Part shown: in pieces, positions 14,894 to 62,189 of the stretch
Numbering within the stretch: position 1 is the first letter of the stretch
Layout of the letters: every line of letters starts with the position of its first letter
NCBI RefSeq assembly: GCF_963921235.1
Contig: NC_086097.1
Coordinates: 106,518,001 to 106,582,000, forward strand
Length of the DNA: 64,000 bases
Direction: 5' to 3'
From: Mobula hypostoma
Taxonomy: Eukaryota
The notes under the pieces: model-generated
Database searches by the model: none
What the model saw: only the letters and a program-made list of their open reading frames with translations
What the model was told of the DNA's origin: nothing
Program-made: the position numbers and the translations under genes

Positions 14894-15366
14894 TTTTTAG
14901 CCTCTTACCTACTTTTGACCTTTTAATCTCTAATTGCCAAAATACCTTTGACCATCTTGACTTCTCGTTCCATCCTAACCCACTCTGAAGGTGGAATACT
15001 GCCCCCACCCCCAGAAGAAGTAGGGCTCCATTCAGTACGGTCCTGGTTGATCTGTGCTGGATCAGCTCCGCTTCTGTCCCAGCTCCTCATAGTCTACAAT
15101 TCTTCAATCTTTCAAATAGTTCTCTATCTCCACCTTAAATACATCTAATGATCTGACCACCAAAATATACTGATGCAGAGAATTTCAGAGATTCACTACC
15201 TGCCGAGAGATGGAATTTCTAAACACTCAAACAAAATGCTGGAGGGACTCAGCAAGTCAAGCAGCATCTAGAAAGATGAGAAAACAGTTGACATAAGTTT
15301 CAGGCAACACACATCAAAGTTGCTGGTGAACGCAGCAGGCCAAGCAGCATCTGTAGGAAGAGGTGC

Positions 15367-15402
15367 AGTCGACGTTTCAGGCCGAGACCCTTCGTCAGGA
15401 CT
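15367..15402 (-). ncRNA. Minimal type-I hammerhead ribozyme in the PLE pLTR
   Basis: Minus strand reads AGUC CUGACGA AGG GUCUCGG CCU GAA ACGU C GACU: CUGANGA and GAAA core, GUC cleavage triplet, stem I AGUC/GACU, stem II AGG/CCU, palindromic ACGU replacing stem III. Confidence 0.8.
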
Positions 15403-15704
15403 AACTGAAGGAAGAGCGAGTAAGGGATTTGAAAGTTGGAGGGGCAGGGGGAGATCCAAAATAATAGGAGAAGACAGGAGGGGGAGGGATAGAGCCAAGA
15501 GCTGGACAGGTGATAGGCAAAAGGGGATACGAGCGGATCATGGGACAGGAGGTCCGGGAAGAAAGACAAGGTGGGGGGGGGCCCGAGGATGGGCAAGAGG
15601 TATATTCAGAGGGACAGAGGGACAGAGGGAGAAAAAGGAGAGTGAGAGAAAGAATGTGTGCATAAAAATGAGTAACAGATAGGGTACGAGGGGGAGGTGG
15701 GGCC

Positions 15705-17187
15705 TTAGCAGAAGTTAGAGAAGTCGATGTTCATGCCATCAGGTTGGAGGCTACCCAGACGGAATATAAGGTGTTGTTCCTCCAACCTGAGTGTGGCTTC
15801 ATCTTTACAGTAGAGGAGGCCGTGGATAGACATGTCAGAATGGGAATGGGATGTGGAATTAAAATGTGTGGCCACTGGGAGATCCTGCTTTCTCTGGCGG
15901 ACAGAGCGTAGATGTTCAGCAAAGCGGTCTCCCAGTCTGCGTCGGGTCTCACCAATATATAAAAGGCCACATCGGGAGCACCGGACGCAGTATATCACCC
16001 CAGCCGACTCACAGGTGAAGTGTTGCCTCACCTGGAAGGACTGTTTGGGGCCCTGAATGGTGGTAAGGGAGGAAGTGTAAGGGCATGTGTAGCACTTGTT
16101 CCGCTTACACGGATAAGTGCCAGGAGGGAGATCAGTGGGGAGGGATGGGGGGGGACGAATGGACAAGGGAGTTGTGTAGGGAGCGATTCCTGTGGAATGC
16201 AGAGAGAGGGGGGGAGGGAAAGATGTGCTTAGTGGTGGGATCCCGTTGGAGGTGGCAGAAGTTACGGAGAATAATATGTTGGACCCGGAGGCTGGTGGGG
16301 TGGTAGGTGAGGACCAGGGGAACCCTATTCCTAGTGGGGTGGCAGGAGGATGGAGTGAGAGCAGATGTACGTGAAATGGGGGAGATGCGTTTAAGAGCAG
16401 AGTTGATAGTGGAGGAAGGGAAGCCCCTTTCTTTAAAAAAGGAAGACATCTCCCTCGTCCTAGAATGAAAAGCCTCATCCTGAGAGCAGATGCGTCGGAG
16501 ACGGAGGAATTGCGAGAAGGGGATGGCGTTTTTGCAAGAGACAGGGTGAGAAGAGGAATAGTCCAGATAGCTGTGAGAGTCAGTAGGCTTATAGTAGACA
16601 TCAGTGGATAAGCTGTCTCCAGAGACAGAGACAGAAAGATCTAGAAAGAGGAGGGAGGTGTCGGAAATGGACCAGGTAAACTTGAGGGCACGGTGAAAGT
16701 TGGAGGCAAAGTTAATAAAGTCAACGAGTTCTGCATGCGTGTAGGAAGCAGCGCCAATGCAGTCGTCGATGTAGCGAAGGAAAAGTGGGGGACAGATACC
16801 AGAATAGGCACGGAACATAGATTGTTCCACAAACCCAACAAAAAGGAAGGCATAGCTAAGACCTATACGGGTGCCCATAGCTACACCCTTAGGTTGGAGG
16901 AAGTGGGAGGAGCCAAAGGAGAAATTATTAAGAGTAAGGACTAATTCCGCTAGACGGAGCAGAGTGGTGGTAGAGGGGAACTGATTAGGTCTGGAATCCA
17001 AAAAGAAGCGTAGAGCTTTGAGAACTTCTTGATGGGGGATGGAAGTATATAAGGACTGGACATCCATGGTGAAAATAAAGCGGTGGGGGCCAGGGAACTT
17101 AAAATCATCTAAAAGTTTAAGAGCGTGAGAAGTGTCACGAACATAGGTCAGAAGGGATTGAACAAGGGGTGATAAAACAGTGTCGGG
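15705..17187 (-). pseudogene. PLE RT-GIY-YIG ORF, N-terminally truncated, one frameshift
   Basis: ORF 16132..17193 (RT) switches to the frame of ORF 15705..16601 (endonuclease) at a C8 run (G8 at 16147-16154) where the other copy has C7. Confidence 0.9.
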
Positions 17188-18213
17188 TGACATAAGTTTC
17201 AGTCTAAAATGTTTACTGTTTATTTTTCTCCATAGAGGCTACCTAACATACTGAGTTTCTCCAGAAGTTTATAAATGTTGCTCTTAGATTTTCAGCATGT
17301 GCAGAATCTCTTGCGTTCATGATTCTACACACTGTATTTGAAATAAGCATCATTATCTTGTTGCTATGTCCCCTTGTTTATGATCAACCAGCTGGAGAAA
17401 ACATCTACCCTAAGGATCTTATATGTTTGAACAGGAACATACCCCGTTCTTTAAAACTCCAAGCAATGCAAACAGGAATGATTAGCTTCTCTTGATTGGG
17501 CAATCCTCTCTGGTGAATCTCCTTTAGACTGCCTACAATGTTATTATTTTTAGGTGAAAGTACCGAAACTGTGAGCAGTATTACAGGTGTGACTTCATCG
17601 ATACCAGAAAAAACCGTAGCAAACTTCCTTATTCTTAAACACCAGTCCCTTTGCAATAAAACTTAATATGTCCTTTGCCTTTTCAATTACATTTTGGGCC
17701 TGCCTCATAAGTTTTTCATAATTCATGCGCTAGAACACCTCAATCCTTCTAACAAAACTTATTTGCAAGTCTTCCAGCAGATTATCTTTTGCTCCCTATT
17801 TCAGCATCTGGAGTCTCTTGTGTCTTCACTCATTTATAGTCTTTGGCAGAGTAGACTTGATGGACTGAACGGCCTCATTCTGTTCCTATGTCTTTGTCTA
17901 TTTTAATAATGATCAAACTTTTGATTACTCTTACTGAAGTGCATGACTTCATATTTCCCCATATTAAACTCCATATTTGTCAGGTTTATGTCCAGTTCCT
18001 AAATCTATATAGTGATTCTGCAATAGGGTATGTCCTTTACACAAAATACCCTCTTTTCATATCATTGGCAAAATTGGAAAAATTACATTTCTTTCTCTCC
18101 TCCAGGTAATTAATGTAAATAGTGAATAGCTGAGGGCCAAGACAGCTCACTGGGTTTATCCACTAGTTACATTTCTCCAGCTTCTAAAGGACCAATTTAA
18201 TCCAATTCAATAT

Positions 18214-32400: not shown

Positions 32401-33938
32401 ATTCTTCACGGAATTACACCTTATGACATTTCAATTGATCTCAAAGATTTTCCTGTCTGGCTTCAATCAGGAACAGTCTACCTGCACAATTTCACTGATA
32501 TGTAGCATGTCTGGCACAGTTGAATTGGCTGAAATATTTTATGGGCAATGCTTTGGAAGCGTGCCTCTCAAAGTCCAATCCTACGTGCCCATCGTAAGAG
32601 GTGGAAGGCAGGCCAACAGGACTCTGGTGAAGCTGTATGGGCCAATCCCCTGTATAGTAGATACACCCACTATACCATTGACTTTGGATGATGGAGATGT
32701 GGGGTCGTCGATGAGGAGCTAAGGGCCCAGGAAGAAGAAGCAGCAACAGCTTTGGAAGCATCATTGAAACAACTTTATCAGTGTTTCCATATGAGCAAGC
32801 AAAGGAGTTTTCATAGTTGACAGAATTCCCAAAATTTCCCGTAGGCCTAGAGTGCACTCACATAACAACTATAGTTACAGAGACCTCCTAGACCATTTCT
32901 TGCCAGGAGTGCAGGACTATCATTCCTGGGAATCTTCACAATCATTATGTTCATAAGCCCTTTGTACAAATGCCTCATGTGGGGATTGATCTTCATCAGC
33001 TTGTCCCAGGTTCTTGTGGCCATCATTGAAACACCTTCCCTCCCATTAGTACAGCATCTACTCTTGAAGCAGCATCCATCCCGGTGCAGTGGGATCCACC
33101 CCTTCCCAGTCTGAAAGTATGCAGCTTGTGTTCTAGTGTGTCCATTTAAGAGCTATTTCCCACAGCTGCACCTGTTAGACTGCATGCCTGCAGCTGAATT
33201 TGCATAGATCAGTAAGCTCACAGAGGAGCATTACAAACATAGCATCCTCAACACAGAAGGCCGCATTGAATGAGTCTTCAAAAAACAACATTAGGTTAAG
33301 ACATAATGTAACTAAAATGTGATAAGGCATTTTCTACACACTTGTCTGACTGCTCCACAGATGCTGCCTGATTTTTCAATGCTTTTGCAGTTTATTTCTG
33401 CTCCACTAGAATCTGACTATTTACATCTTTGGCATTTTGAACTTTAAGAAGGCTTTGGTTCCTGCAATTTGAGCCAACTTGCTTATCGAAGACTGTGGCA
33501 GTTAGTTAAATACATTCTATACTTACCTACAGCTTCTCTGCAATTCAGTCATAATTGTCAAAACTGGTTAGTCCCGTTTTATGCTTTGGTCCAGACATAT
33601 ATTAGATGTTAATTGTGAACTGTTGCCTGCCTCTGGACTCCAGGTCAGAGCATTACACTATTTTTACTCATGTTCATCTCAGCAAACTACAATGCCCCCC
33701 GTCATGAGATGAATCAGCTAAAATTATAGTATCCATGATAAATTAACAAGACAGGTGATCTGACACTTCTTACCAGGTTTTATAACCCAGGTAACAAAAA
33801 TACTAAAATGTACACAAAGAAAGATGGCGCTGGTAACTCAAACAACAGGAATCTCTGCAGATGCTGGAAATTCAAGCAACATACATAAAAGTTGCTGGTG
33901 AACGCAGCAGGCCAGGCAGCATCTCTAGGAAGAGGTGC

Positions 33939-33974
33939 AGTTGACGTTTCAGGCTGAGACCCTTCGTCAGGACT
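33939..33974 (-). ncRNA. Minimal hammerhead ribozyme (one stem-I mismatch)
   Basis: Minus strand: AGUC CUGACGA AGG GUCUCAG CCU GAA ACGU C AACU. Confidence 0.65.
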
Positions 33975-33998
33975 AACTGAAGGAAGAGTCCTTCAGTT

Positions 33999-34034
33999 AG
34001 TCCTGACGAAGGGTCTCGGCCTGAAACGTCGACT
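33999..34034 (+). ncRNA. Minimal hammerhead ribozyme
   Basis: AGTC CTGACGA AGG GTCTCGG CCT GAA ACGT C GACT. Confidence 0.8.
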
Positions 34035-35773
34035 GCACCTCTTCCTAGAGATGCTGCCTGGCCTGCTGCGTTCACCAGCAACGTTTATGTGTGTGGCGCT
34101 GGTAACTGGCGACTTTGCGCGTGCTCTCCCGAGCAAACTGCCCTCTCCACTATCCTATATCCGAGGAACCCTTTTAAACCTCCAATCTGGCAAGATCAAG
34201 ATCAACAACACCCTGGCAAAGCTACTGACCCAGCTGGAGACCACCACGCCAGAATTGCTCCTTAAATTCCAGACCGCACCTGGACCAGATCAGCGAGGCC
34301 CACCACGTTCCCGGAGACCCGTGGTTTGCTACTGTGCCGGAGCGTTTGGAGACACAGCCCATTCTGACCAGCACCTCTCCAGACCAGATGACCACACAGA
34401 AGTGACGGCATAGACCTCAAGATGCCCCAGATGCTTCCCTGGAGCGACCACCGTAAAGCCCCGTTGGTGGCCATCCACAGCTGCCAGAAGTGAGGCCTCC
34501 GCCGCCGACCTCGGAAATCGAGCCCGAGGCTCCGCTGGAGTGGAGGCCTCTGCAACCATGACTCGGCTTAAGGACTTGTTTCAGCCAGGAGCCCGGCCAT
34601 CCGGGATTAAGTGTCGGCTTCGGGGCCCGACCCAATCGACAGCCCGGGCCCCCGGCAGCTGGAAGTGGCAGCGGAGCTTCCCCCGTTACTCGGCCCGACC
34701 CGGAGCGTCCAACAACGCGACCCGCTGATCGATCCCCACGGGATGGGTCCACCAACCGCAAAGGGCTGACAACAACGCACTGCATCGATGGAAACCTGGA
34801 AAGGTGCACTATTTACCGAGGAAGCGTGGGAAAAGAGCTGGGCTGCTGGTCAGATTGAAGCTGAGGGGCTTCGGGGTCCCTATGCCCACCATCCTACTAG
34901 CTAATGTGCAAGCCATAGACAACAAGGTGGATGATCTTAAAGGGAGACTCACCTACTGCAGGGATATGCAGAACTGCTGCGTATTCTGTTTCACTGAGAC
35001 CTGACTCGCCCCTGCCACCCCCGACTGTGCCATCCGACCGGAGGGATTTTCGATCCATCAGAGGGACTGCACGGTGTCTTTGGGCAAGACGAGGGGAGGT
35101 GGTGTCTGCCTACTGATCAACACTGCGTGGTGCTCGGACACAGTGTCACTGACAAGCTCCTGCAGCCCGGACCTGGAACACCTGTCGGTGAAGTGTCGTC
35201 CCCACTATCTGCCATGGGAATTCACCTCAGTCATACTGACAGCGGTCTACATTCCCCCCCACCCCCCAGGCGGACGTGGAGTTGTCTCTGAACATACTGT
35301 ATGCCAACATCAGTGAACTTGAGACCAGGTATCCGGAGGCTTTGCTCATTACAGCCAGGGACTTTAACCAGGCCAACCTCAGAAAGGCGCTGCCAAAGTT
35401 ATACCAACATGTCTCCTGCCCCACTAGAGGCCCGAATATACTTGACCACTGCTACACAGCAGTCAAGGATGCCTACCGTTCCGTCCCACGACCTCACTTC
35501 AGAAAATCCAACCATCAGGCCGTACTCCTCCTCCCGGCTTACAAACAGAAACTGAAGCGGGAGGTTACAATGTCAAAAGTAGTGTCGCGTTGGACGGAGG
35601 AAACAGATGAGGTCCTCCGTAACTGCTTTGAATCGGTGGACTGGTTAGTATTCAAGGACTCAGCAGCTAACCTCGATGAGTATGCCTCAGCTGTCACGGA
35701 CTTTATTTGGAAATGCACAGAGGACTGTGTGTCTCGCAAGACGATCTGAGTTTTCCCTAACCGGAAACCTTGG

Positions 35774-40988: not shown

Positions 40989-41454
40989 ATTATTGAGAGA
41001 AAACTGGCAGCTCTGGGGTCAAAATGTTGCAATTTTATAAAGTTTGAGTCAACATCGCAATTCACTCGACTGCTTAAGATGAGGGCCAGTATTTAACATG
41101 TGGAAAAGGCTAGGTTGATTCAGTTACTAGGCTAGGTTGATTTAGCTTATCTCATTCAGAGCGGCACTTTAATTAGAGTAGGGATGGGAAGAAAAGTCAT
41201 AGATTTGAGTTTCACCTTGCTATTAGCAAAATCTGCAGAAAGTGTTTGCATATGCGTTGGATACAGACTGAATGAAACTCAAAAACAATGCACCACTCAG
41301 TTACACCTGATACTGCTCAAGCATGGAACCAATTTATAGCATGGGAGAAAAATGATAGTAAAAACAGACAGAAAGAAGATTATTCCTCAGTAATCATTGG
41401 TTTGAAAATAAATTATATAATCATGACATCCACTAACAGAAAATTATCCAAACA

Positions 41455-41671
41455 ACACACACAAAATGCTGGAAGAACTCAGCAGGCCAGGCAGCATCTA
41501 TGGAAAAGAGCACAGTTGACATTTCAGGCCAAGACCCTTCAGCAGTTCGGTCTCGGCCCGAATCGTCGACTGTACTCTTTTCCATAGATGCTGCCTGGCC
41601 TGCTGTGCTCCTCCAGCAGTTGGTGTGTGTTGCTCGGATTTCCAGCATCTGCAGATTTTCTCTTGTTTGTG
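41455..41671. mobile_element. Older fold-back PLE mini-element
   Basis: Arms about 41455-41536 and 41549-41632; turn-around inside the hammerhead; tail on the right; TSD-like ATTATCCAAACA (41443-41454) and ATTATCCCAACA (41672-41683). Confidence 0.85.
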
Positions 41672-43681: not shown

Positions 43682-43931
43682 AAGATAGTATAGGCACTGC
43701 TAAATCTTCCCTACTCTTAGGGAAGTGTTTAGGGAGGTGGTCCAAGAGAGCTCCTCTGTGATGTTCACTCTCAAAAAAATTAAAGCTGGAGACCCTTTCC
43801 ATTGCTTCACCATTTATGCGTAATGGAGCTTGTTCATACTTTCTTCATTTCCTGAAATCAATAACCATTTCTTTGTTGAGTGAAAAGTTATGGTTATTGC
43901 ACCATCCAAACCATCCATTGCACCATCCAAA

Positions 43932-46900
43932 ATCATGTGAGATGTGGCAGTTTTGGGGGAACGCCCCTCTCCCGCAGAGTCACATCTGCCAGAAGTGCAT
44001 ACAGCTGGGCGATCTGGAAGACCATGTAAGGAATCTGGATCAGCAGCTGGATGACCTTCGACTCATAAGGGAGAATGAGGCAGCCAAAAATGAGAGCTAC
44101 AGGGAGGTAGTCACACCTAGGCTGTCGGAAGCAGGTCGTTGGGTGATAGTCCGAGGGGGGAAAGCGAAGGTGAGCAGACAGGTAGTGCAGAGCACCCCTG
44201 TAGCCATTCCCCTGAATAATAAGTTTACAGTCCTGGACGGGGACGACCGACCAGATGTGAGCCGCAGTGGTAGGGCCTTCGGCACTGTGTCTGACCCAGT
44301 GGTGCAGAAGAGTGGTACGGAGAAGAGGAGAGCTGTCATCATTGGAGACTCTATAGTCAGGGGAGCAGACAGGAGATTTTGTGGACGTGAGAAGGACACC
44401 TGCATGGTTTGTTGCCTCCTGGGTGCCAGGGTCCGGGATGTCTCTGACCAGGTGCACGACATCCTGGTACGAAAGGGAAAGCAGCCAGAAGTTGTGATAC
44501 ATGTTGGTACCAACGACGTAAGCAGGAAGAGGGATGAGGTCCTGAAGTGTGAGTTTTGGGAATTAGGCAGAAGGCTGAAGAACAGGACCTCAAGGGTAGC
44601 GTTCTCAGGATTGCTGCCAGTGCTATGTGACAGTGATGGTAAGAATTGGAGGAGATGGCAGTTGGATGTGTGGCCGAGGAGTTGGTGCAGGGAGCAGGGT
44701 TTTAGATTTTTGGATCAGTGGGATCTCTTCTGGGGAAGGTGGGACCTGTACAGATTGGATGGGTTGCACCTGAACTCGAGGGAGAGCAATATCCTTGCAG
44801 GTAGGGTTGCTAGCCTGGTTCGGGAGGGTTTAAACTAATTTGCAAGGGGGATGGGACCCGGAGCAATAGAGCAGTAAAAGAAGTGCATGGAGTAAAGCCA
44901 GATCTAACATATAGAGAGGCCTTGAGGAAAGAGAAGCAGAATAAAGGGTGTAAAGGTAGTAAGGCAGAAGGGATGAAGTGTGTGTACCTCAACGCAAGAA
45001 GCATCAGGAACAATGATGATGAACTGAGAGCTTGGTTACATACATGGAATTATGATGTAGTGGCCATTACAGAGACTTGGCTGGCACCAGGGCAGGAATA
45101 GATTCTCAATATTCCTGGATTTCAGTGCTTTAAAAGGGATAGAGAGGGGGAACAAAGGGGAGGAGGAGTGGCATTACTGGTTGGGGATACTATTACAGCT
45201 ACAGAAAGGGTGGGTAATGTAGCAGGATCCTCTTTTGAGTCAGTATGGGTAGAAGTCAGGAACAGGAAGGGAGCAGTTACTCTATTGGACGTATTCTATA
45301 GGCCCCCGGTAGCAGCAGAGATACAGAGGTGCAGATTGGGAGGCAGATTTTGGAAAGGTGCAAAAATAACAGGGTTGTTATCATGGGCGACTTTAACTTC
45401 CCTAATATTGATTGGCACCTGATTAGTTCCAAGGGTTTAGATGGAGCAGAGTTTGTTAAGTGTGTGCAGGACGGATTCCTGTCACAGTATGTGGACAGGC
45501 TGACTAGGGAGAATGCCATACTAGATCTAGTACAAGGTAATGAACCGGGTCAGGTCACAGATCTCTCAGTGGGTGAGCATCTTGGGGACAGTCACCACCG
45601 CTCCCTGGCCTTTAGCATTATCATGGAAAAGGATAGAATCAGAGAGGACAGGAAAATTTTTAATTGGCGAAGGGCAAATTATGAGGCTATAAGGCTAGAA
45701 CTTGCAGGTGTGAATTGGGATGATGTTTTTGCAGAGAAATGTACTATGGACATGTGGTCGATGTTTAGAGATCTCTTGCAAGATGTTAAGGATAAATTTA
45801 TCCCAGTGAGGAAGATAAAGAATGGTAGGGTGAAGGAACCATGGGTAACAAGTGAGGTGGAAAATCTAGTCAGGTGGAAGAAGGCAGCATACATGAAGTT
45901 TAGGAAGCAAGGATTGGATGGGTCTATTGAGGAATATAGGGATGCAAGAAAGGAGCTTAATAAGGGGCTGAGAAGAGCAACAAGGGGGAATGAGAAGGCC
46001 TTGGCAAGTAGGGTAAAGGAAATCTCCAAGGCATTCTTCAATTATGTGAAGAACAAAAGGATGACAGGAGTGAAGGTAGGACCGATTAGAGATAAAGGTG
46101 GGAAGATGTGCCTGGAGGCGGTGGAAGTGAGCGAGGTCCTCAATGAATACCTCTCTTCGGTATTCACCAATGAGAGGGAATTTGATGACGGTGAGGACAA
46201 TATAAGTGAGGTTGATGTTCTGGAGCATGTTGATATTAAGGGAGAGGAGTTGTTGGAGTTGTTAAAATACGTTAGGACCGTTAAGTCCCCGGGGCCTGAC
46301 GGAATATTCCTCAGGCTGCTCCATGAGGCGAGGGAAGAGATTGCTGAGCCTCTGGCTAGGAACTTTATGTCCTCATTGTCCACGGGAATGGTACCGGAGG
46401 ATTGGAGGGAGGCGAATGTTGTCCCCTTTTTCAAAAAAAGTAGTAGGGATAGTCCGGGTAATTATAGACCAGTGAGCCTTACGTCTGTGGTGGGAAAGCT
46501 GTTGGAAAAGATTCTTAGAGATAGGATCTATGGGCATTTAGAGAATCATGGTCTGATCTGGGACAGTCAGCATGGCTTTGTGAGGGTCAGATCGTATCTA
46601 ACAAGCCTGATAGAGTTCTTTGAGGAGGTGACCAGGCATGTAGATGAGGGTAGTGCAGTGGATGTGATCTATATGGATTTTAGTAAGGCATTTGACAAGG
46701 TTCCACACGGCAGGCTTGTTCAGAAAGTCAGAAGGCATGGGATCCAGGGAAGTTTGGCCAGATGGATTCAGAATTGTCTTGCCTGCAGAAGGCAGAGGGT
46801 CATGGTGGAGGGAGTACATTCAGATTGGAGGATTGTGACTAGTGGTGTCCCACAAGGATCTGTTCTGGGACCTCTACTTTTCGTGATTTTTATTAACGAC

Positions 46901-47826
46901 CTGGATGTGGGGGTAGAAGGGTGGGTTGGCAAGTTTGCAGACGACACAGAGGTAGGTGGTGTTGTGGATAGTGTAGAGGATTGTCAAAGATTGCAGAGAG
47001 ACATCAATAGGATGCAGAAGTGGGCTGAGAAGTGGCAGATGGAGTTCCACCCGGAGAAGTGTGAGGTGGTACACTTTGGAAGGACAAACTCCAAGGCAGA
47101 GTACAAAGTAAATGGCAGGATACTTGGTAGTGTGGAGGAGCAGAGGGATCTGGGGGTACATGTCCACAGATCCCTGAAAGTTGCCTCACAGGTAGATAGG
47201 GTAGTTAAGAAAGCTTATGGGGTGTTAGCTTTCATAAGTCGAGGGATAGAGTTTAAGAATCGCGATGTAATGATGCAGCTCTAAAAAACTCTAGTTAGGC
47301 CACACTTGGAGCACTGTGTCCAGTTCCAGTCGCCTCACTATAGGAAGGATATAGAAGCATTGGAAAGGGTACAGAAGAGATTTACCAGGATGCTGCCTGG
47401 TTTAGAGAGTATGCATTATGATCAGAGATTAAGGGAGCTAGGGCTTTACTCTTTGGAGAAGGAGGATGAGAGGAGACATGATAGAGGTGTACAAGATAAT
47501 AAGAGGAATAGATAGAGTGGATAGCCAGCACCTCTTCCCCAGAGCAGCACTGCTCAATACGTGAGCACATGGTTTTAAGGTAAGGGGTGGAAGTTCAAGG
47601 GGGATATTACAGGAAGGTTTTTAACTCAGAGAGTCGTTGGTGCGTGGAATGCACTGCCTGAGTCACTGGTGGAGGCAGATACACTCGTGAAGTTTAAGAG
47701 ACTACTAGACAGGTATATGGAGGAATTTAAGGTAGGGGGTTATATGGGAGGCAGGGTTTGAGGGTCAGCACAACATTGTGGGCCAAAGGGCCTGTTATGT
47801 GCTGTACTATTCTATGTTCTATGTTC
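43932..47826 (+). mobile_element. CR1 family 'A', copy 2 (most of ORF1 plus ORF2)
   Basis: ORF1 with Cys motif ('CEMW..CQKC'), coiled coil and SGNH esterase, stop at 44836-44838; 651-aa open ORF2 segment 45329..47284; (TTCTATG)n tail; near-identical to 19771-24814. Confidence 0.95.
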
Positions 47827-52900: not shown

Positions 52901-54457
52901 CCGTGATATTATCCCTGACTAGCAATGCCATAACCCCAACTCTTTTGTATCCCTCCCTGTTCTTTTGAAATCCTGACATACTCAGCAGCCACTCCTGCCC
53001 CTGAGACATCCAAGTCTCTGTAATGGCCACAACATCCTTATTCCACATATTGATCCATAGAACCATTGAACCATAGAAACTACAGCACAGAAACAGGCCA
53101 TTTGGCCCTTCTTGGCTGTGCCAAACCATTTTCTGCCTAGCCCCACTGACCTGCACACGGACCATATCCCTCCATACACCTCCCATCCATGCATCTGTCC
53201 AATTTATTCTTAAATGTTAAAAAAGAACCCGCATTTACCACCTCGTCTGGCAGCTCATTCCATACTCCCACCACTCTCTGTGTGAAGAAGCCCCCCCTAA
53301 TGTTCCCTTTAAACTCACCCTTAACCCATGTCCTCTGGTTTTTTTCTCCCCTTGCCTCAGTGGAAAAAGCCTGCTTGCATTCACTCTATCTATACCCATC
53401 ATAATTTTATATACCTCTATCAAATCTCCCCTCATTCTTCTACGCTCCAGGGAATAAAGTCCTAACCTATTCAACCTTTCTGTGTAACTGAGTTACTCAA
53501 GTCCCAGCAATATCCTTGTAAACCTTCTCTGCACTCTTTCAACCTTATGTATATCCTTCCTGTAATTTGGTGACCAAAACTGAACACAATACTCCAGATT
53601 CGGCCTCACCAATGCCTTATACAACCTCATCATAACATTCCAGCTCTTATACTCAATACTTTGATTAATAAAGGCCAATGTACCAAAAGCTCTCTTTACG
53701 ACCCTATCTACCTGTGACGCCACTTTTAGGGAATTTTGTATCTGTATTTCCAGATCCCTCTGTTCCACTTCACTCCTCAGTGCCTTACCATTAACCCTGT
53801 ATGTTCTACCTTGGTTTGTCCTTCCAACGTGCAATACCTCAAATTTGTCTGTATTAAACTCCATCTGCCATTTTTCAACCCATTTTTCCAGCTGGTCCAA
53901 GTCCCTCTGCAGGCTCTGAAAACCTTCCTCACTGTCTACTACACCTCCAATCTTTGTATCATCAGCAAATTTGCTGAGCCAATTTACCACATTATCATCC
54001 AGATCATTGATACAGATGACAAATAACAATGGACCCAGCACTGATCCCTGTGGCACACCACTAGTCACAGGCCTCCACTCAGAGAAGCAATTCTCTACCA
54101 CCATCTTTAGCTTCTTCCATTAAGCCAATGTCTAATCCAATTTACCACCTCTCCTTGTATACCTAGCGACTGAATTTTCCTAACTAACCTCCCATGAGGG
54201 ATCTTGTCAAAGGCCTTACTGAAGTCCATGTAGACAATATCCACGGCCTTCCCTTCATCCACTTTCCTGGTAACCTCCTTGAAAAACTCCAATAGATTGG
54301 TCAAACATGACCTACCATGCACAAAGCCATGTTGACTCTCCCTAATGAGTTCCTGTCTATCCAAATGCTTGTAGATTCTGTCTCTTAGTACTCCCTCCAA
54401 TAACTTACCTACTACCGACGTTAAACTTACTGGCCTATAATTTATAGGAAGAAGCGC

Positions 54458-54493
54458 AGTCGACGTTTCAGGCCGAGACCCTTCGTCAGGACT
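54458..54493 (-). ncRNA. Minimal hammerhead ribozyme
   Basis: Minus strand: AGUC CUGACGA AGG GUCUCGG CCU GAA ACGU C GACU. Confidence 0.8.
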
Positions 54494-56478
54494 AACTGAA
54501 GGAAGAGTGAGTAAGGGATTTGAAAGCTGGAGGGGGAGGGGGAGATGCAAAATGATAGGAGAAGACAGGAGGGGGAGGGATGGAGCCGAGAGCTGGACAG
54601 GTGATAGGCAGAAGGGGATACGAGAGGATCATGGGACAGGAGGTCCGGGAAGAAAGACGGGGGGGGGGTGACCCAGAGGATGGGCAAGAGGTATATTCAG
54701 AGGGACAGAGGGAGCCCATAGCTACACCTTTAGTTTGGAGGAAATGGGAGGAGCAAAAGGAGAAATTATTAAGAGTAAGGACTAATTCTGCTAGACGGAG
54801 CAGAGTGGTGGTAGAGGGGAACTGATTAGGTCTGGAATCCAAAAAGAAGCGTAGAGCTTTGAGACCTTCCTGATGGGGGATGGAAGTATATAGGGACTGG
54901 ACATCCCAGGTGAAAATAAAGCGGTGGGGGCCAGGGAACTTAAAATCATCTAAAAGTTTAAGAGCGTGAGAAGTGTCACGAACATAGGTCGGAAGGGATT
55001 GAACAAGGGGTGATAAAACACCGTATGGGTCCTAGCTATGCCTGCCTTTTTGTTGGGTTTGTGGAACAATCTATGTTCCGTGCCTATTCTGGTATCTGTC
55101 CCCCACTTTTCCTTCGCTACATCGACGACTGCATTGGCGCTGCTTCCTGCACGCATGCAGAACTCGTTGACTTTATTAACTTTGCCTCCAACTTTCACCC
55201 TGCCCTCAAGTTTACCTGGTCCATTTCTGACACCTCCCTCCCCTTTCTAGATCTTTCTGTCTCTGTCTCTGGAGACAGCTTATCCACTGATGTCTACTAT
55301 AAGCCTACTGACTCTCACAACTATCTGGACTATTCCTCTTCTCACCCTGTCTCTTGCAAAAACGCCATCCCCTTCTCGCAATTCCTCCGTCTCCGCCGCA
55401 TCTGCTCTCAGGATGAGGCTTTTCATTCTAGGACGAGGGAGATGTCTTCATTTTTTAAAGAAAGGGGCTTCCCTTCCTCCACTATCAACTCTGCTCTTAA
55501 ACGCATCTCCCCCATTTCACGTACATCTGCTCTCACTCCATCCTCCCACCACCCCACTAGGAATAGGGTTCCCCTGGTCCTCACCTACCACCCCACCAGC
55601 CTCCGGGTCCAACATATTATTCTCCGTAACTTCCGCCACCTCCAACGGGATCCCACCACTAAGCATATCTTTCCCTCCCCCCTCTCTCTGCATTCCGCAG
55701 GGATCGCTCCCTACACAACTCCCTTGTCCATTCGTCCCCCCCATCCCTCCCCACTGATCTCCCTCCTGGCACTTATCCGTGTAAGCGGAACAAGTGCTAC
55801 ACATGCCCTTACACTTCCTCCCTTACCACCATTCAGGGCCCCAAACAGTCCTTCCAGGTGAGGCATCACTTCACCTGTGAGTCGACTGGGGTGATATACT
55901 GCGTCCGGTGCTCCCGATGTGGCCTTTTATATATTGGTGAGACCCGACGCAGACTGGGAGACCGCTTTGCTGAACATCTACGCTCTGTCCGCCAGAGAAA
56001 GCAGGATCTCCCAGTGGCCACACATTTTAATTCCACATCCCATTCCCATTCTGACATGTCTATCCACGGCCTCCTCTACTGTAAAGATGAAGCCACACTC
56101 AGGTTGGAGGAACAACACCTTATATTCCGTATGGGTAGCCTCCAACCTGATGGCATGAACATTGACTTCTCTAACTTCCGCTAGGCCCCACCTCCCCCTC
56201 GTACCCCATCTGTTACTCTTTTTAATGCACACATTCTTTCTCTCACTCTCCTTTTTCTCCCTCTGTCCCTCTGAATATACCTCTTGCCCATCCTCTGGGT
56301 CACCCCCCCCCCCTTCTTTCTTCCCGGACCTCCTGTCCCATGATCCTCTCGTATCCCCTTCTGCCTATCACCTGTCCAGCTCTCGGCTCCATCCCTCCCC
56401 CTCCTGTCTTCTCCTATCATTTTGCATCTCCCCCTCCCCCTCCAGCTTTCAAATCCCTTACTCACTCTTCCTTCAGTT

Positions 56479-56514
56479 AGTCCTGACGAAGGGTCTCGGC
56501 CTGAAACGTCGACT
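56479..56514 (+). ncRNA. Minimal hammerhead ribozyme
   Basis: AGTC CTGACGA AGG GTCTCGG CCT GAA ACGT C GACT. Confidence 0.8.
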
Positions 56515-59500
56515 GCGCTTCTTCCTATAGATGCTGCCTGGCCTGCTGCGTTCACCAGCAACTTTGATGTATGTTGCTTGAATTTCCAGCATCTGCAGAA
56601 TTCCTGTTGTTTGGCCTATAATTTCCCGGATTACTTTTCGATCCTTTTTTAAACAACGGAACAACATGAGCCACTCTCCAATCCTCCGGCACCTCACCTG
56701 TAGACAGCGACATTTTGAATATTTCTGCCAGGGCCCCTGCAATTTCAACACTAGTCTCCTTCAAGGTCCGAGGGAACACCCTGTCAGGTCCTGGGGATTT
56801 ATCCACTTTAATTTTCCTCAAGACAGCAAGGACCTCCTCCTTTTCGATCTGTACAGTTTCCATAATCTCACTACTTGTTTCCCTTAATTCCATAGACTTC
56901 ATGCCAGTTTCCTTAGTGAATACAGACGCAAAAAACCTATTTAAGATCTCCCCCATTTCCTTTGGTTCCACGCATAGCCGACCACTCTGATCTTCAAAAG
57001 GACCAATTTTATCCCTTACAATCTTTTTGCTCTTAATATACCTGTAAAAGCTCTTTGGATTATCCTTCACTTTGACTGCCAAGGCAACCTCATGTCTTCT
57101 TTTAGCCCTCCTGATTTCTTTCTTAAGTATTTTCTTGCACTTCTTATACTCCTCAAGCACCTTATTTACTCCCTGCTTCCTATACATTTCATACAACTCC
57201 CTCTTCTTCTTTATCAGAGTTGCAATATCCCTTGAGAACCAAGGTTCCTTATTCCTATTCAATTTGCCTTTAATCCTGACAGGAACATACAAATTCTGCA
57301 CTCTCAAAATTTCTCCTTTGAAGGCTTCCCACCTACCGATCACATCCTTGGCAGAGAACAACCTGTCCCAATCCACGCTTTTTAGATCCTTTCTCATTTC
57401 TTCAAATTTGGCCTTCTTCCAGTTAAGAACCTCAACCCTAGGACCAGATCTATCCTTGTCCATGATCAAGTTGAAACTAATGGTGTTATGATCACTGGAA
57501 CCAAAGTGCTCCCCTACATAGACTTCTGTCACTTGTCCTAACTCGTTTCCTAACAGGAGATCCAATATTGCATCCCCTCTAGTTGGTCCCTCTATATATT
57601 GATTTAGAAAACTTTCCTGAACACATTTTACAAACTCTAAACCATCTAGACCCCTAAAAGTATGGGAGTCCCAATCAATATATGGAAAATTAAAATCCCC
57701 GACCACCACAACTTTATGTTTCCTGCAGATGCCTGCTATCTCTCTGCAGATTTGCTCTTCCAATTCTCGTTGACTGTTGGATGGTCAATAATACAACCCC
57801 ACTAATGTGGCCATACCTTTCCTGCTTCTCAGCTCCACCCATAAGAACTCAGTAGACAAGCCCTCTAATCTGTCCGGCCTGAGCACTGCTGTAATATTTT
57901 CCCTAACAAGCAATGCTACTCCCCCACCTTTCATTCCTCTGCCTCGATCACATCTGAAACACAAGGAACCCTGGAATATTAAACTGCCAGTTCTGCCCCT
58001 CCTGTAGCCAAGTTTCACTAATTGCTATAACGTCATAATTCCACGTGTCAATCCACGCCCTCAACTCATCCGCCTTCCCCGCAATACTCCTAGCATTGAA
58101 ATATATACACCTCAGAAGATTTTTACCACCACTCACAACCTTTCTATTAGCGGATTTGCTTGAACCTTTAACATCATTTATTTTCACTCCAGCCACACTG
58201 TCAGCTCTGGCACTCTGGTTCCCATCCCCCTACAAATCTAGTTTAAAGCCTCCCCAATAGCAGTAACAAACCTCCCTGAAAGGATATTGGTCCTCCTGTA
58301 GTTCAAGTGTAACCCATCTCTCTTGTACAGGTCCCACCTGCCCCAGAAGAGGTCCTAATTATCCTGAAATCTGAAACCCTGCTCCCTACACCAGTTCCTC
58401 AGCCACTTGTTCATCCTCCAGAGCATCCTATTCTCACCCTCACTGGCATGTAGCACAGGTAGCAATCCTGAGATTACCACCCTCAAGGTCCTGCTTTTCA
58501 ACTTCCTACCAAGCTCACTCTCCAGGACCTCCTCACTCTTCCTTGCTATGTTCGAAGTTCATCTGCCTTGTTTATGATCCTCCTTGTGTTAACACACACA
58601 TCTCAAATCATCTGGTTGAATGCATCTTTGCTCTATCATCTGCCTATCCTTCCTCACAAACTCCTTACAAGCTTTCTCTACTTGTGTGCCAACCGCCTCA
58701 TCCTCTGCCTCTTCACTTCGGTTCCCACCCCCCCGCAAACTGAGTTTAAACCCTCCCCAATAGCTTTAGCAAACCTCCCTCCCAGGATATTGGCTCCCCT
58801 CCAGTTCAGGTGCAACCTGTCCCACTTGTACAGGTCACCCCTTCCCCAGAAAAGGTTCCAATGATCCAAGGACTTAAAACGCTGCCCCCTGCACCATCTC
58901 CTCTGCCACTCATTCATCTGCGATATCTTCCTCTACTGACCTTCCCCAGCTCGTGGCACTGGGAGTAATCCGGTGATTACCACCTTGGAGGTCCTGTTCT
59001 TCCACCTCCTTCCTAACTCCCTGAACTTACTGCACAGGACATCTGCCCCTCTCCTACCCACGCCTCGCCTTTGGTAACAATATGTACCATGACCTCTGGC
59101 TGCTCACCCTCTCCTTCAAGAATATTCTGCAACTGCTCTACTGAGCTTATAGATTTCAGTAAAAAGCTCTGCCAGTCTCTGAGGACCGGCCTAAGTACAG
59201 CGTCTGGTCGAGCTGCTTTGTGTGTGCTGATACTGTGGAGAGTACATGTTAGCTCATGAGTGCTCAGTGTCAATGCTGTGTCCTTCTCAGGTGTTAATAT
59301 TAAACATGGATCTTGAAATTCACAGGTCTGAATAGACTGGAAAAGAATAGTAGTGCTGGAGCAAAAATTTTGGAGAGAACATGGTTTTGCTGGAATTCTG
59401 GTGAACCACAGATCTTTTTACTGTCTGCTGTCAAGGAGGGAATGAAAAACTGGCCCAACCTTGCCAAAATCAGGGTCATGTGAATGAGGAGGCTCTCATT

Positions 59501-60300: not shown

Positions 60301-61004
60301 TGATTTGGTATTGGTATGGATTGAAATATTGCTGTATCAATCCAAATACTTTTACCAGTGGCTTGAGTTGCGAGCTGATGAAACACTCTTGCAGGAATGC
60401 AATACAGAAACCAGCAATAAAAATAACCATATGAGTGGTGGTCCCTCAAAAGTTGCATTACCGTGATTTCATCAGACTCACAAAATACTAAATAAAATAC
60501 TAAATAAAATCCTACATAATGGACCCGATACCTGACCTATGGGCATCCTGTACCACTGAATGAGCTCCCATAAACAAACAGTTTACAAGTATCCTCCTCC
60601 CTCATTTATATGTAACCTCTCTGTCGTAATCAAACACCATTGTTTTTCAAGAACATAACCTGCCTATTTCACTGCGGGCGGGCACTTAAATTTACTTTGG
60701 ACATTAACAAGACAACCTGTACTTGATAGATGTGCATCCATACACCCACTGAGGTTATTGAAACCTACCATTAAGCATGGGGCATCCTAACTTGTTAACC
60801 CTGTAACTAGATATGAGCAGACAATAAATAAATGCCTATGTTAATTGGCCCCTTTTGAAACCCCCTATGATGACACAATTCATGATATACTGTGAATGGA
60901 ATGATTACGATATCAGATGATTTTGTAAGTTTCTGATAATATTGATAAATTGACATCTGTATAAATGCAAACAATTGTAACTAGAGTTGGCTGGCACATA
61001 TGGA

Positions 61005-61198
61005 AACAACAGGAATTCTGCAGATGCTGGAAATTCAAGCAACACACATCAAAGTTGCTGGTGAACGCAGCAGGCCAGGCAGCATCTCTAGGAAGAGGTA
61101 CAGTCAACGTTTCAGGCCGAGACCCTTCGTCAGGACTAACTGAAGGAAGATCTCTTACTAACTCTTCCTTCAGTTCACCAGCAACTTTGATGTGTGTT
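61005..61198. mobile_element. Fold-back PLE mini-element with internally deleted right arm
   Basis: 34-nt tail plus full left arm (61005-61150); right arm TCTTCCTTCAGTT jumps via GTT to CACCAGCAACTTTGATGTGTGTTGC; TSD-like GCTGGCACATATGGA (60990-61004) and GCTAGCACATACGGA (61199-61213). Confidence 0.85.
61102..61137 (-). ncRNA. Minimal hammerhead ribozyme (GUU cleavage triplet)
   Basis: Minus strand: AGUC CUGACGA AGG GUCUCGG CCU GAA ACGU U GACU. Confidence 0.72.
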
Positions 61199-62189
61199 GC
61201 TAGCACATACGGATGTCGCTTGGGAATAGGAATAAGAAAATCAAAAGGAGGGCTGAAATAAAAACCCATGATTTCCTAAAAAGAAATAGCTGCCTCAAAT
61301 TGTATTCTTCTGTTATTCAAGAGCTAAACCCATGTTGCACATAGTGGAAATGTCGATCTCCCAAAATTAATTGTGAAATTGAGTCAAAAAAGGTAAAAGC
61401 TAGCACAACCACAGTTTGCACACCAATTTATTCAGTAAGATTGGATTTGTGCATTTCCTGTATTGTCTTCCATGCAGAATTTGCATCTGCTACATTGCCA
61501 TACTGACCAAAGGGAAGCAAGTCACAGATTAAAGAACTTTCTCTATGCCAACCACAACACAAATAAAATGGTTGCCACTGAATGGACGGAAAACCTGACC
61601 CTCTACAGCATGACTGGGATCCTCCTGAATTTGACAAACTGGCCCCGTTGACACTTGTGTCCTGTGTGGCTCTAAGCAATAAGCTTGTGATTGCAAACGA
61701 TTTTGCAAAAAAACATCAATGAGCAAATCAGAAATCACATTGAAACGCGAGGTGTCAATGTGACCTGCAGACATGTTAATTGTCTTCACCTTCCTAAATC
61801 TTGCATAATGATCTCCTGGTTTGTTAATGAGTGAATAACAAACATTGTAGACTTCCCTCAAATCTCCTTTTTTCTGTTAGAAGCACAGAAAACATGCTGT
61901 GCAACCTTTAATATCATTCGATGAACAAATAATGCTGGGCAAATTTCAGCCAAATCAAGATGAATTGTGCCAGAATGTGCCAGGCATATTTCCAATGTAA
62001 TATTCAAGGCAACTTTAATATCCAATTACAGATTAAAAACGTGTCCAGATTCAGCTGGTGATTGGTTCATGCTTTTCTTTCACTGTACATTCTATTATGA
62101 AGAATGTAATTTGACATTTTCAGTTTTTTGGGATGTGCCAAAAGCACACCAATCTAAAGTGATGGATTGATGACCTGTGTAAGTGAAGT

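Follow-up and report, generated by a model that had tools for sequence, protein, structure and literature searches.

PLE insertions and their hammerhead-bearing relatives

The closest described counterparts of the locus analysed here are the insertions of EN+ PLEs (Arkhipova et al. 2013, PMC3846280; Craig et al. 2021, PMC8557442). Such insertions have pLTRs in head-to-head inverted orientation, the inverted copy being 5′-truncated, with palindromic sequence where the two meet. A tail of 30-40 bp is present at only one end, the flanking TSD varies in length, the repeated part contains a hammerhead motif, and the parent element has GIY-YIG and RT domains. PMC3846280 proposed self-priming or fold-back as the explanation, and the integration mechanism is still only partly understood (PMC11167929, PMC8557442). 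All of these structural features are also found in the window, i.e., the whole 64-kb stretch of DNA analysed here. However, in comparison with the insertions described in PMC3846280 and PMC8557442, the units here are cut to 105-146 nt per copy, so that only the hairpin is left. The palindrome in the window is the shortest size class of this published insertion form and is ordinary in kind. As a common by-product of a known retroelement class it needs no new category, and the suggestion of an earlier sequence-only reading that it represents an undescribed system is not sustained, since the inverted pLTRs, junction palindrome, single tail and TSD are already present in those sources.

The hammerheads of metazoan PLEs were described as minimal motifs (min-HHRs) in which helix III is absent and helix I is short; they carry the CUGANGA and GAAA boxes, one additional nucleotide ahead of helix II and a palindromic 15.2/16.2 pair (Cervera & de la Pena 2014, PMC4209133), all of which are shared by the motif here. 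In vitro, these min-HHRs are poor at cleavage, and dimers are their suspected active form; pairs lying 100-700 bp apart on opposite strands were noted in the same study. However, the window copy has U at 11.1, which would form a G.U rather than a G-C pair, and it matches no Rfam model. A subsequent study of target-primed synthesis by a purified Anolis PLE protein (Frangieh et al. 2024, PMC11167929) reported that the protein cleaves and extends both DNA strands, that reverse transcription has two neighbouring internal start sites, which bracket the "tail", and that RNA past the start site is needed for binding; extension of both strands and two internal starts flanking a tail would also describe the units here. 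The Anolis motif cleaves only with protein, and hammerhead cleavage was dispensable for insertion in vitro. Non-LTR retrozymes, according to a preprint (10.64898/2026.07.22.740005), are likewise short, non-coding, PLE-derived and hammerhead-bearing. However, they are head-to-tail tandem arrays for which circular RNA is suspected, whereas the units here are single, head-to-head and TSD-flanked.

The palindrome and its relatives in the window

The palindrome at 33839-34093 (Table 1) comprises 255 bp with 109-nt arms, a 4-nt loop, which is also the terminal loop of the RNA fold, and a 37-nt one-sided tail. The arms (33876-33984 and 33989-34097) lie 4 nt apart and are 95% complementary, with mismatches at 5 of 109 positions; because the right arm shares its final 4 nt with the TSD, the arm length is 105-109 nt. 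The TSD is the perfect 14-bp direct repeat TGGCGCTGGTAACT at 33825-33838 and 34094-34107. The left flank is single-copy, with a contig word depth of 7.7 as against thousands, the right flank is repeated DNA, and an ORF downstream of the unit contains RVT_1. The end position of the tail is constant across 30 genomic copies. These measurements bear out the description given by the sequence-only reading, namely a 255-bp palindrome with a one-sided tail, a perfect 14-bp TSD and hammerhead motifs on both strands, the motif being identified here by descriptor.

Table 1. Features of the window unit and of related PLE copies in the window
Position	Strand	Feature	Basis
15223..15303	-	One arm of an old, diverged mini-hairpin; other arm at ~17203-17317; outer boundaries approximate	Read by eye
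15305..17188	-	Younger 5′-truncated, tail-less PLE copy inside the old hairpin; own 14-bp TSD at 15291-15304 / 17189-17202	Alignment
33825..33838		Left copy of the 14-bp TSD	100% direct repeat of 34094-34107; left flank single-copy by contig word depth
33839..33875	-	Tail, restricted to this arm; final 37 nt of the PLE 3′ module (x+68 to x+103)	Matches 3′ end of the PLE copy ending at 56613
33876..33984	-	Tail-bearing arm, PLE sense on the minus strand; inner end ~x-43 to x-46	Inverted-repeat search; BLAST against reference 55701-56613
33943..33970	-	Minimal hammerhead motif (CUGANGA box, helix II, GAAAC, GUC)	Pattern match, alignment, pair counts
33985..33988		4-nt turn-around loop	Gap between arms; RNA fold
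33989..34093	+	Short arm without a tail; its end is at the inner start position (~x+67)	Inverted-repeat search; BLAST against reference
34003..34030	+	Minimal hammerhead motif; predicted cleavage site after 34030	Pattern match, alignment, pair counts
34094..34107		Right copy of the 14-bp TSD, in repeated (LINE-like) DNA	Direct repeat; contig word depth
41446..41669		Older mini-hairpin of a diverged subfamily; tail on the right, turn inside helix II, 7-bp flanking direct repeat	Arm search and BLAST
54445..56613	+	Long PLE insertion of the same family as the window unit; tail 56578-56613; 11-bp flanking direct repeat	Inverted-repeat and direct-repeat search
61004..61201		Mini-hairpin with an internal deletion in the short arm	Sequence comparison, BLAST

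The motif CTGANGA-N(6-30)-GAAACGTC occurs in the unit at 34003-34030 (+) and 33943-33970 (-), and five times in the window, whereas 100 shuffles give an expectation of 0.00. The columns of the CUGANGA and GAAA boxes, with H17, are at least 90% conserved across 88 aligned copies, and 88.3% of the cells in helices I and II pair, compared with 13-41% when the partners are slid, both as the min-HHR descriptor specifies; as it also specifies, a single nucleotide separates positions 9 and 10.1. Of the 82 distinct rows, 39 have G.U and 35 have G-C at 10.1-11.1, and 48 have C-G at 15.2-16.2. Covariation in the hammerhead helices was not above that of shuffles; the support for these helices is conservation, not compensatory change. 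No Rfam hammerhead model reached its gathering score anywhere in the window, nor was there a hammerhead hit at E<=10 in 33700-34250, as expected for a motif that lacks helix III. The identity of this putative ribozyme rests on the published minimal-HHR descriptor instead of an Rfam model.

The PLE origin of the unit follows from the match of its arms to the 3′ end of copies with GIY-YIG and RT remnants. In the long insertion at 54445-56613, to which all x coordinates refer (cleavage site 56510|56511), the inverted arm spans 275 bp (54440-54714, the reverse complement of 56257-56532, 99-100% complementary) and adjoins a 1.9-kb direct copy, whose ORF 55663-56184 contains GIY-YIG at 23.5 bits, above the Pfam cut-off of 22.6. 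The copy at 15305-17188 has GIY-YIG at 22.0 bits (15705-16640) and RVT_1 at 18.7 bits (16132-17238), both below the cut-offs (29.6 bits for RVT_1), so that for the parent family GIY-YIG exceeds its threshold and RVT_1 is weak. A full-length PLE that would place the RNA start was sought among eight long young copies in the first 1.264-Mb sample; the longest reached x-2222, every sampled copy was 5′-truncated, and the copies gave no position for the start of transcription or of the ORF. The same architecture had been said to recur at 41455-41671, 61005-61198 and 15223-15303/17188-17317, and it is indeed present, with boundaries at 41446-41669 (arms of 91 nt at 86%, gap of 12 nt), 61004-61201 and ~15223-15303/17203-17317, the last being split by the younger copy at 15305-17188. 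The palindrome at 5391-5610 was unrelated to this hairpin family on comparison.

Mini-hairpins in an unbiased genomic sample

An arbitrary 1.86 Mb (1.864 Mb) of the same genome, ~0.05% of its length, provided an unbiased sample of 219 PLE 3′ modules. Among these modules, a limit of 300 nt on the anchor-to-anchor distance gives 26 head-to-head pairs and one tail-to-tail pair, showing that the adjacency does not arise by chance; 3 of these 26 units come from the window itself. The mini-hairpin size class accounts for 52 of the 219 modules, about a quarter. The window unit is likely one of tens of thousands in the genome, with roughly 4-5 x 10^4 hairpin stumps in all. An exact flanking repeat of at least 7 bp is found in 23/26 units compared with 4.6% of mismatched-flank controls; the repeats range from 5 to 17 bp and measure 13 or 14 bp in 11/26. 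Several of the flanks look A/T-rich. Together with the TSD of the window unit, these repeats indicate that each unit is one insertion event, and a general absence of TSDs, which would have counted against the hairpin family proposed from sequence alone, is not what the sample shows.

Exactly one tailed end was found in 26/26 units, the 37-nt tail of the window unit falling within the 30-40-bp class. Tailed ends lie at x+98 to +103 (one at +83) and the opposite ends at x+55 to +79. Simple copies divide into 94 tailed and 55 tail-less, and if each end were chosen independently, about 47% one-tail units would be expected; by our own arithmetic, 26/26 then has P ~1e-8. In the window as in the sample, an inverted 5′-truncated copy adjoins a direct copy head to head, and larger insertions of this one-tail form also exist in both, e.g., 54445-56613.

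Tandem and inverted PLE structures are known to trouble assemblies (PMC8557442), and no compared read contig spans the centre of the palindrome, so an assembly fold-back artefact, or an inverted duplication after insertion, has to be considered. However, the arm mismatches and the TSDs of the sampled units speak against it, as do old decayed units, one of which was later hit by an insertion. In addition, the left junction is spanned without any difference by a 1255-nt contig from run X1 (33600-33879), and a contig from a second organism label (X5) extends as far as 33852 with 4 differences. Such an origin is thus extremely improbable. Runs X11 and X17, guessed to be RNA, cover the repeat and not the single-copy flank, a pattern that low-coverage DNA would produce as well.

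A second question is whether the hairpins propagate themselves as a non-autonomous family, retrozyme-, SINE- or MITE-like, being transcribed and copied by PLE enzymes. A whole-genome search gave 1954 first-look candidates, and each of the 40 places scored, on one strand, covers 234-255 of the 255 nt with 91-100% identity; several loop variants recur across loci, and two of the units have two arm asymmetries in common. However, these top matches were chosen for likeness to the query, and the 30 near-identical genomic copies are a product of this BLAST selection; in the unbiased sample, the turn differs in nearly every unit, each having its own flanks, loop and turn-around point. One loop variant was found on three states of a non-CpG marker site, and the shared arm asymmetries are CpG in 9/12 cases, some in both directions. 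The subfamily haplotypes at x6/7/18 in the units (TAG, CGT and CAG) each occur in long ORF-bearing copies too, and the two arms of a unit share a haplotype wherever both are readable. Arm divergence is 2.7% within units and 5.2% between units, with 0 mismatches over 96 positions in 4/30 units. There are no head-to-tail tandem arrays, as in retrozymes, among 87 direct neighbour pairs, in which the smallest spacing, 285 nt, separates two modules around 158 nt of foreign sequence. A MITE does not fit either, given the asymmetric ends with a one-sided tail and the flanking repeats of 5-17 bp. Moreover, the units end at the start site and would not include the RNA farther downstream, on which binding by the Anolis enzyme depends (PMC11167929), if that requirement holds by analogy for the window family. 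Self-propagation, one of the two readings offered from sequence alone, is therefore very unlikely. The units are likely made afresh at each insertion, because turn points and loops vary and haplotypes are shared with long copies. The other reading offered, that a step in PLE reverse transcription repeatedly makes the units, agrees with the individual flanks, loops and turns, with the TSDs and with the pile-up of inner ends described below.

Priming, turn-around and the hammerhead zone

Inner ends are concentrated within 60 nt upstream of the hammerhead cleavage site, a zone that holds those of 33/39 arms and 16/58 simple copies; the excess of inner ends there is about ten-fold. The turn-around had been placed near or inside the hammerhead, and the copies do end mostly inside this motif. 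A tabulation of turn points, proposed at the same time and run here on the sample, gave loops whose variation points to de novo formation, and the positions themselves are spread, the mean turn varying by copy from about x-5 (x-5.5) to x-66 relative to the cleavage site. In 17 units, the inner ends of paired arms are correlated (Spearman 0.63, p=0.006), with a median |a-b| of 10 compared with 15.9 when permuted (P=0.049). The tailed arm is longer in 11/17 units, and the tail-less arm extends further upstream in 3/17, where it carries 11-36 nt of parent sequence missing from the tailed arm; the BLAST end points have an uncertainty of a few nt.

On balance, the window palindrome is a single PLE insertion, with the last 105-146 nt of the element present twice, head to head, within one 14-bp TSD, and it probably arose by priming at both DNA ends. 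The PLE endonuclease would make a staggered cut, and both DNA ends would prime reverse transcription of the same 3′ module, one cDNA from the outer start site, giving the tail, and the other from the inner start site. Both cDNAs would stop in the hammerhead zone and then be joined end to end. Such a unit would be dead on arrival, serving as no template for more copies, and new units would come from the RNA of ORF-bearing elements. In L1 twin priming, which gives 5′ inversions, the second DNA end also primes and the inverted segment lies within one TSD. However, the inverted part of an L1 derives from a different upstream stretch of RNA, whereas the two arms here are copies of a single stretch.

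Copy-back (self-priming) of a single cDNA offers another route to a fresh, dead-end by-product. In this case, a cDNA begun at the outer site would stop in the hammerhead zone, and its 3′ end would fold back or jump onto the nascent cDNA and copy it as far as roughly the inner site. Loops of only 4-8 nt are common, the correlated inner ends and the longer tailed arm in 11/17 units are simpler under copy-back than under two-end priming, and palindromes at inverted PLE junctions were read as self-priming in PMC3846280. However, copying back a tailed cDNA cannot yield a longer tail-less arm, so the 3/17 units with parent sequence only in that arm indicate two separate cDNAs. The last 4 nt before the turn of the window unit are unpaired, which leaves no 3′-end priming by base pairing. 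The short arms end outward at the same inner position as tail-less simple copies, a start site in vitro (PMC11167929), and insertions such as 54445-56613 set a much shorter inverted arm beside the direct copy. We consider copy-back possible but rather unlikely.

Two observations besides the inner ends count against two-end priming. In a set of 30 near-identical units, the own partner is the closest or tied-closest relative for just 23/60 arms. In the Anolis system (PMC11167929), the two strands choose their start sites alike, whereas the hairpins here have one end of each kind, so the strict one-tail rule needs extra coupling; we would guess that one RNA is used twice, first from the inner and then from the outer site.

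A further, rather doubtful proposal makes the hammerhead zone a programmed stop and hand-over point. A folded, protein-assisted or dimeric ribozyme, or an RNA 5′ end produced in this zone, would halt the enzyme, the cDNA would be passed to its sister, and the one-tail rule would reflect inner-then-outer start use on one RNA. The RNA fold of the parent 3′ module is unremarkable (z -1.46), so that a plain thermodynamic block is not evident, and the ribozyme may be a candidate for the cause of the stop. If the hand-over proposal were true, the hairpin stumps of the genome would be fossils from which ribozyme folding and template ends in vivo could be read.

Each TSD-flanked stump records, for one event, the start site used at each DNA end, the reach of each cDNA and the joining of the two. 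The one-tail rule and the excess of inner ends constrain any model of PLE integration, and both are testable in the published in-vitro system. In genome annotation, these palindromes would best be masked as PLE fragments and not listed as novel hairpin RNAs or miRNA-like loci. Models of this kind did match the palindrome stem at E<=10 in the Rfam search (mir-3926 and mir-2432, along with PrrB_RsmZ), and these hairpin look-alikes were rejected as chance.

The hairpin unit and its Penelope-like sources

The sequence-only reading had described a palindromic, hammerhead-bearing unit in the window, and this 255-bp mini-hairpin (33839-34093) proved real, since its arms, TSD, one-sided tail and a motif on each strand were all found. 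The repeat search of the window showed arms of 109 nt each, 95% complementary around a 4-nt spacer, and a perfect 14-nt flanking direct repeat, and RNA of either strand was predicted by fold computation to form a single long hairpin (-223 kcal/mol, z -32). With regard to an artefact of assembly, the two arms differ at 5/109 positions, and decayed units are present in the genome, one of which was later struck by another insertion. A 1255-nt contig from sequencing run X1 spans the left junction (33600-33879) with 0 differences, and a contig from run X5, which carries a second organism label, extends to 33852 with 4 differences; none of the compared run contigs crosses the palindrome centre, the contig support being for the left junction. 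The tail of the unit has one extra base at 33853 relative to most genomic copies, which is missing in 29/30 aligned loci and is left out in >90% of the summed depth of contigs from four runs.

The source copies of the hairpin arms are Penelope-like elements (PLEs). In the window, the 3' termini of several further copies, including the insertion 54445-56613, match the tailed arm. The initial 275 bp of this insertion repeat 56257-56532 in inverted orientation (99-100% complementary), and the insertion is therefore very young. Identical arms (zero mismatches in 96 positions) also occur in 4 of 30 near-identical genomic mini-hairpins, and the PLE family has probably been active recently. For comparisons, 55701-56613 was used as the reference, with x counted from 56510|56511, where the hammerhead is predicted to cleave; on this scale, tailed copies end at x+103 and tail-less ones near x+67. 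The 36-nt tail of the reference contains two perfect adjoining 6-nt palindromes and is in part complementary to x+17..+24 in its own module, features that might mediate dimer or other RNA-RNA contacts close to the start sites. Several further LINE RT/EN ORFs, besides the one tabulated, lie in the window.

Features of the window (positions in the window)
Feature	Positions	Strand	Remarks
Tail of unit	33839-33875		37 nt, left side only
Inverted arms of unit	33876-33984, 33989-34097
Flanking direct repeat of unit	33825-33838, 34094-34107
Hammerhead motif	34003-34030	+	in unit
Hammerhead motif	33943-33970	-	in unit
PLE insertion	54445-56613		11-bp direct repeat on flanks
Inverted arm of insertion	54440-54714
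ORF in insertion	55663-56184		GIY-YIG above Pfam cut-off
Tail of insertion	56578-56613		palindromes 56593-56598, 56599-56604
Second PLE copy	15305-17188	-	weak RVT_1 and GIY-YIG matches; no tail; own 14-bp TSD
LINE	43762-47284	+	GDSL-like lipase/esterase ORF (at Pfam cut-off), then ORF with endonuclease and RVT_1
Palindrome unrelated to PLE family	5391-5610		105-nt arms, 85% complementary, 10-nt gap; a 12-nt palindrome in each arm (5442-5453, 5548-5559)

The predicted hammerhead and the inner ends

The pattern CTGANGA-N(6-30)-GAAACGTC occurs once per strand in the unit and five times in the whole window (3 outside the unit), versus 0.00 expected from shuffles. Rfam gave no hammerhead match in the window, which is expected because the motif lacks helix III. 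Compared with the descriptor that Cervera and de la Pena (PMC4209133) gave for minimal hammerheads, the motif possesses both catalytic boxes, the extra nucleotide ahead of helix II, a helix I of 4-5 bp, a helix II of 4 bp and the palindromic 15.2/16.2 pair. The catalytic box columns are >=90% conserved among 88 copies of several subfamilies, and in the copy alignment the proposed helix pairs form in 88.3% of cells versus 13-41% with partners slid, while covariation in the helices was no better than in shuffles. Thus, at the level of sequence, the predicted hammerhead motif is conserved and compatible with the fold.

Among copies >=85% identical to the reference, 33 of the 39 hairpin arms have their inner end in [x-60, x0) and 6 elsewhere, and the inner ends of the 58 simple copies (single 3' modules, i.e., terminal PLE stretches, without an inverted partner) fall in [x-60, x0) in 16 cases, in [-100,-60) in none, in [-200,-100) in 3 and beyond -200 in 35. 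Inside [0,+20) lie just 3 inner ends of arms and 2 of simple copies. BLAST end points are accurate to only a few nt, and inner ends past x+20 are harder to detect. The 60-nt zone corresponds to the hammerhead plus ~20 nt upstream of it and is broad, with no single position, nor the cleavage site itself, standing out. Synthesis could end there because the enzyme stalls on a ribozyme that is folded or protein-bound, or because template RNAs start there; the computed fold of the parent RNA is not unusually stable.

Formation of mini-hairpins across the genome

A search with the whole unit against its own genome (3.48 Gb, 200 contigs) gave 1954 first-look candidates, and each of the 40 loci scored, for a single strand, matches 234-255 of 255 nt at 91-100% identity. 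In 30 aligned near-identical units the flanks differ, TSDs are visible, the tailed end is constant and at least a dozen different loops occur, some recurring; this set is uninformative on turn-around variability because its members were selected for similarity to the query. An arbitrary sample of 1.864 Mb (20.0-20.2 Mb of nine contigs, i.e., nine 200-kb stretches, plus the window) contains 219 copies of the 3' module. With anchors at x+50, 26 head-to-head pairs of neighbours <=300 nt apart were found, including 3 in the window, versus 1 tail-to-tail pair at equal distance. Mini-hairpins thus hold 52/219 modules (24%), or ~13-14 units per Mb, which extrapolates to some 4-5 x 10^4 in the whole genome.

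Two origins had been proposed for these units, namely repeated generation by PLE reverse transcription and propagation as a retrozyme- or MITE-like family. Of the sampled units, 23/26 are flanked by exact repeats of >=7 bp (13 or 14 bp long in 11/26), versus 4.6% of mismatched-flank controls. Mean turn positions span x-5.5 to x-66, loops differ, and no tandem arrays of the 3' module were seen in the sample. The marker haplotypes of the units at x6, x7 and x18 (TAG, CGT and CAG) are each also found in long copies, and both arms of a unit agree at these sites wherever both are readable. Arm divergence in the 30 near-identical units is 2.7% within a unit versus 5.2% between units, and 9/12 asymmetries common to at least two units affect CpGs, some of them running both ways. 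However, the own partner is the closest or tied-closest relative for only 23/60 of these arms, which counts against a clean picture. The picture is also blurred by two units at different loci with different loops, L008 (G000:C78:9854727-9854978) and L009 (C12:63200613-63200861), which share two arm asymmetries, at x-22 and x-13, both CpG; this sharing could be coincidental, or the templates could have been two RNAs stemming from distinct source copies. Taken together, these results indicate that mini-hairpins, old and recent alike, arise anew with every insertion and derive from several PLE lineages. Repeated generation is thereby supported, and a self-propagating family finds no support in the sample.

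The one-tail rule and a proposed mechanism of synthesis

In 26/26 units a tailed end at x+98 to +103 (+83 in a single unit) is combined with a tail-less end at x+55 to +79, and the same rule holds in larger head-to-head insertions with contiguous arms. Simple copies in the 1.864-Mb sample comprise 94 tailed and 55 tail-less; by our own arithmetic, independent end choice would leave ~47% of units with exactly one tail, giving 26/26 a probability of ~1e-8.

Pieces of a mechanism are already in the literature. Arkhipova et al. 2013 (PMC3846280) report inverted pLTRs (PLE repeats), one of which bears a tail, together with TSDs and with palindromes where the inverted copies join, and propose self-priming, and Craig et al. 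2021 (PMC8557442) give an inverted 5'-truncated copy and a one-ended 30-40-bp tail as typical; the suggestion of an undescribed system is therefore unsupported. Frangieh et al. 2024 (PMC11167929) showed that a purified Anolis PLE protein cuts and extends both DNA strands, that it has two adjacent internal RNA start sites with the tail in between, that hammerhead cleavage is dispensable and that binding requires RNA beyond the start site. Both ends of a staggered cut probably prime on the 3' module, one per start site, and both cDNAs would terminate in the hammerhead zone, after which one would be extended on the other. Two cDNAs are favoured by the short-arm end, which coincides with that of tail-less simple copies, by parent sequence in the tail-less arm that is absent from the tailed arm (3/17 units), and by the very unequal arms of insertions such as 54445-56613. 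Alternatively, a single cDNA could be copied back. This would fit the short loops (4-8 nt), inner ends that correlate between the arms (Spearman 0.63, p=0.006, n=17) and a tailed arm that exceeds its partner in length in 11/17 units. Neither model as it stands accounts for the strict one-tail rule, which would be explained if synthesis on one RNA used the inner site first and the outer site next, with the first cDNA displaced.

A further arrangement, at a locus elsewhere in the genome (L039:2916-3320, G000:C2:20082916-20083320), consists of two direct tailed 3' modules (x-18..+101 and x-25..+101) around 158 nt of unrelated sequence, and an 8-bp direct repeat flanks this entire arrangement. It resembles a foreign insert enclosed by two pLTRs and is a possible instance of PLE enzymes taking along other sequence, which has been reported for Adineta vaga (PMC3846280).
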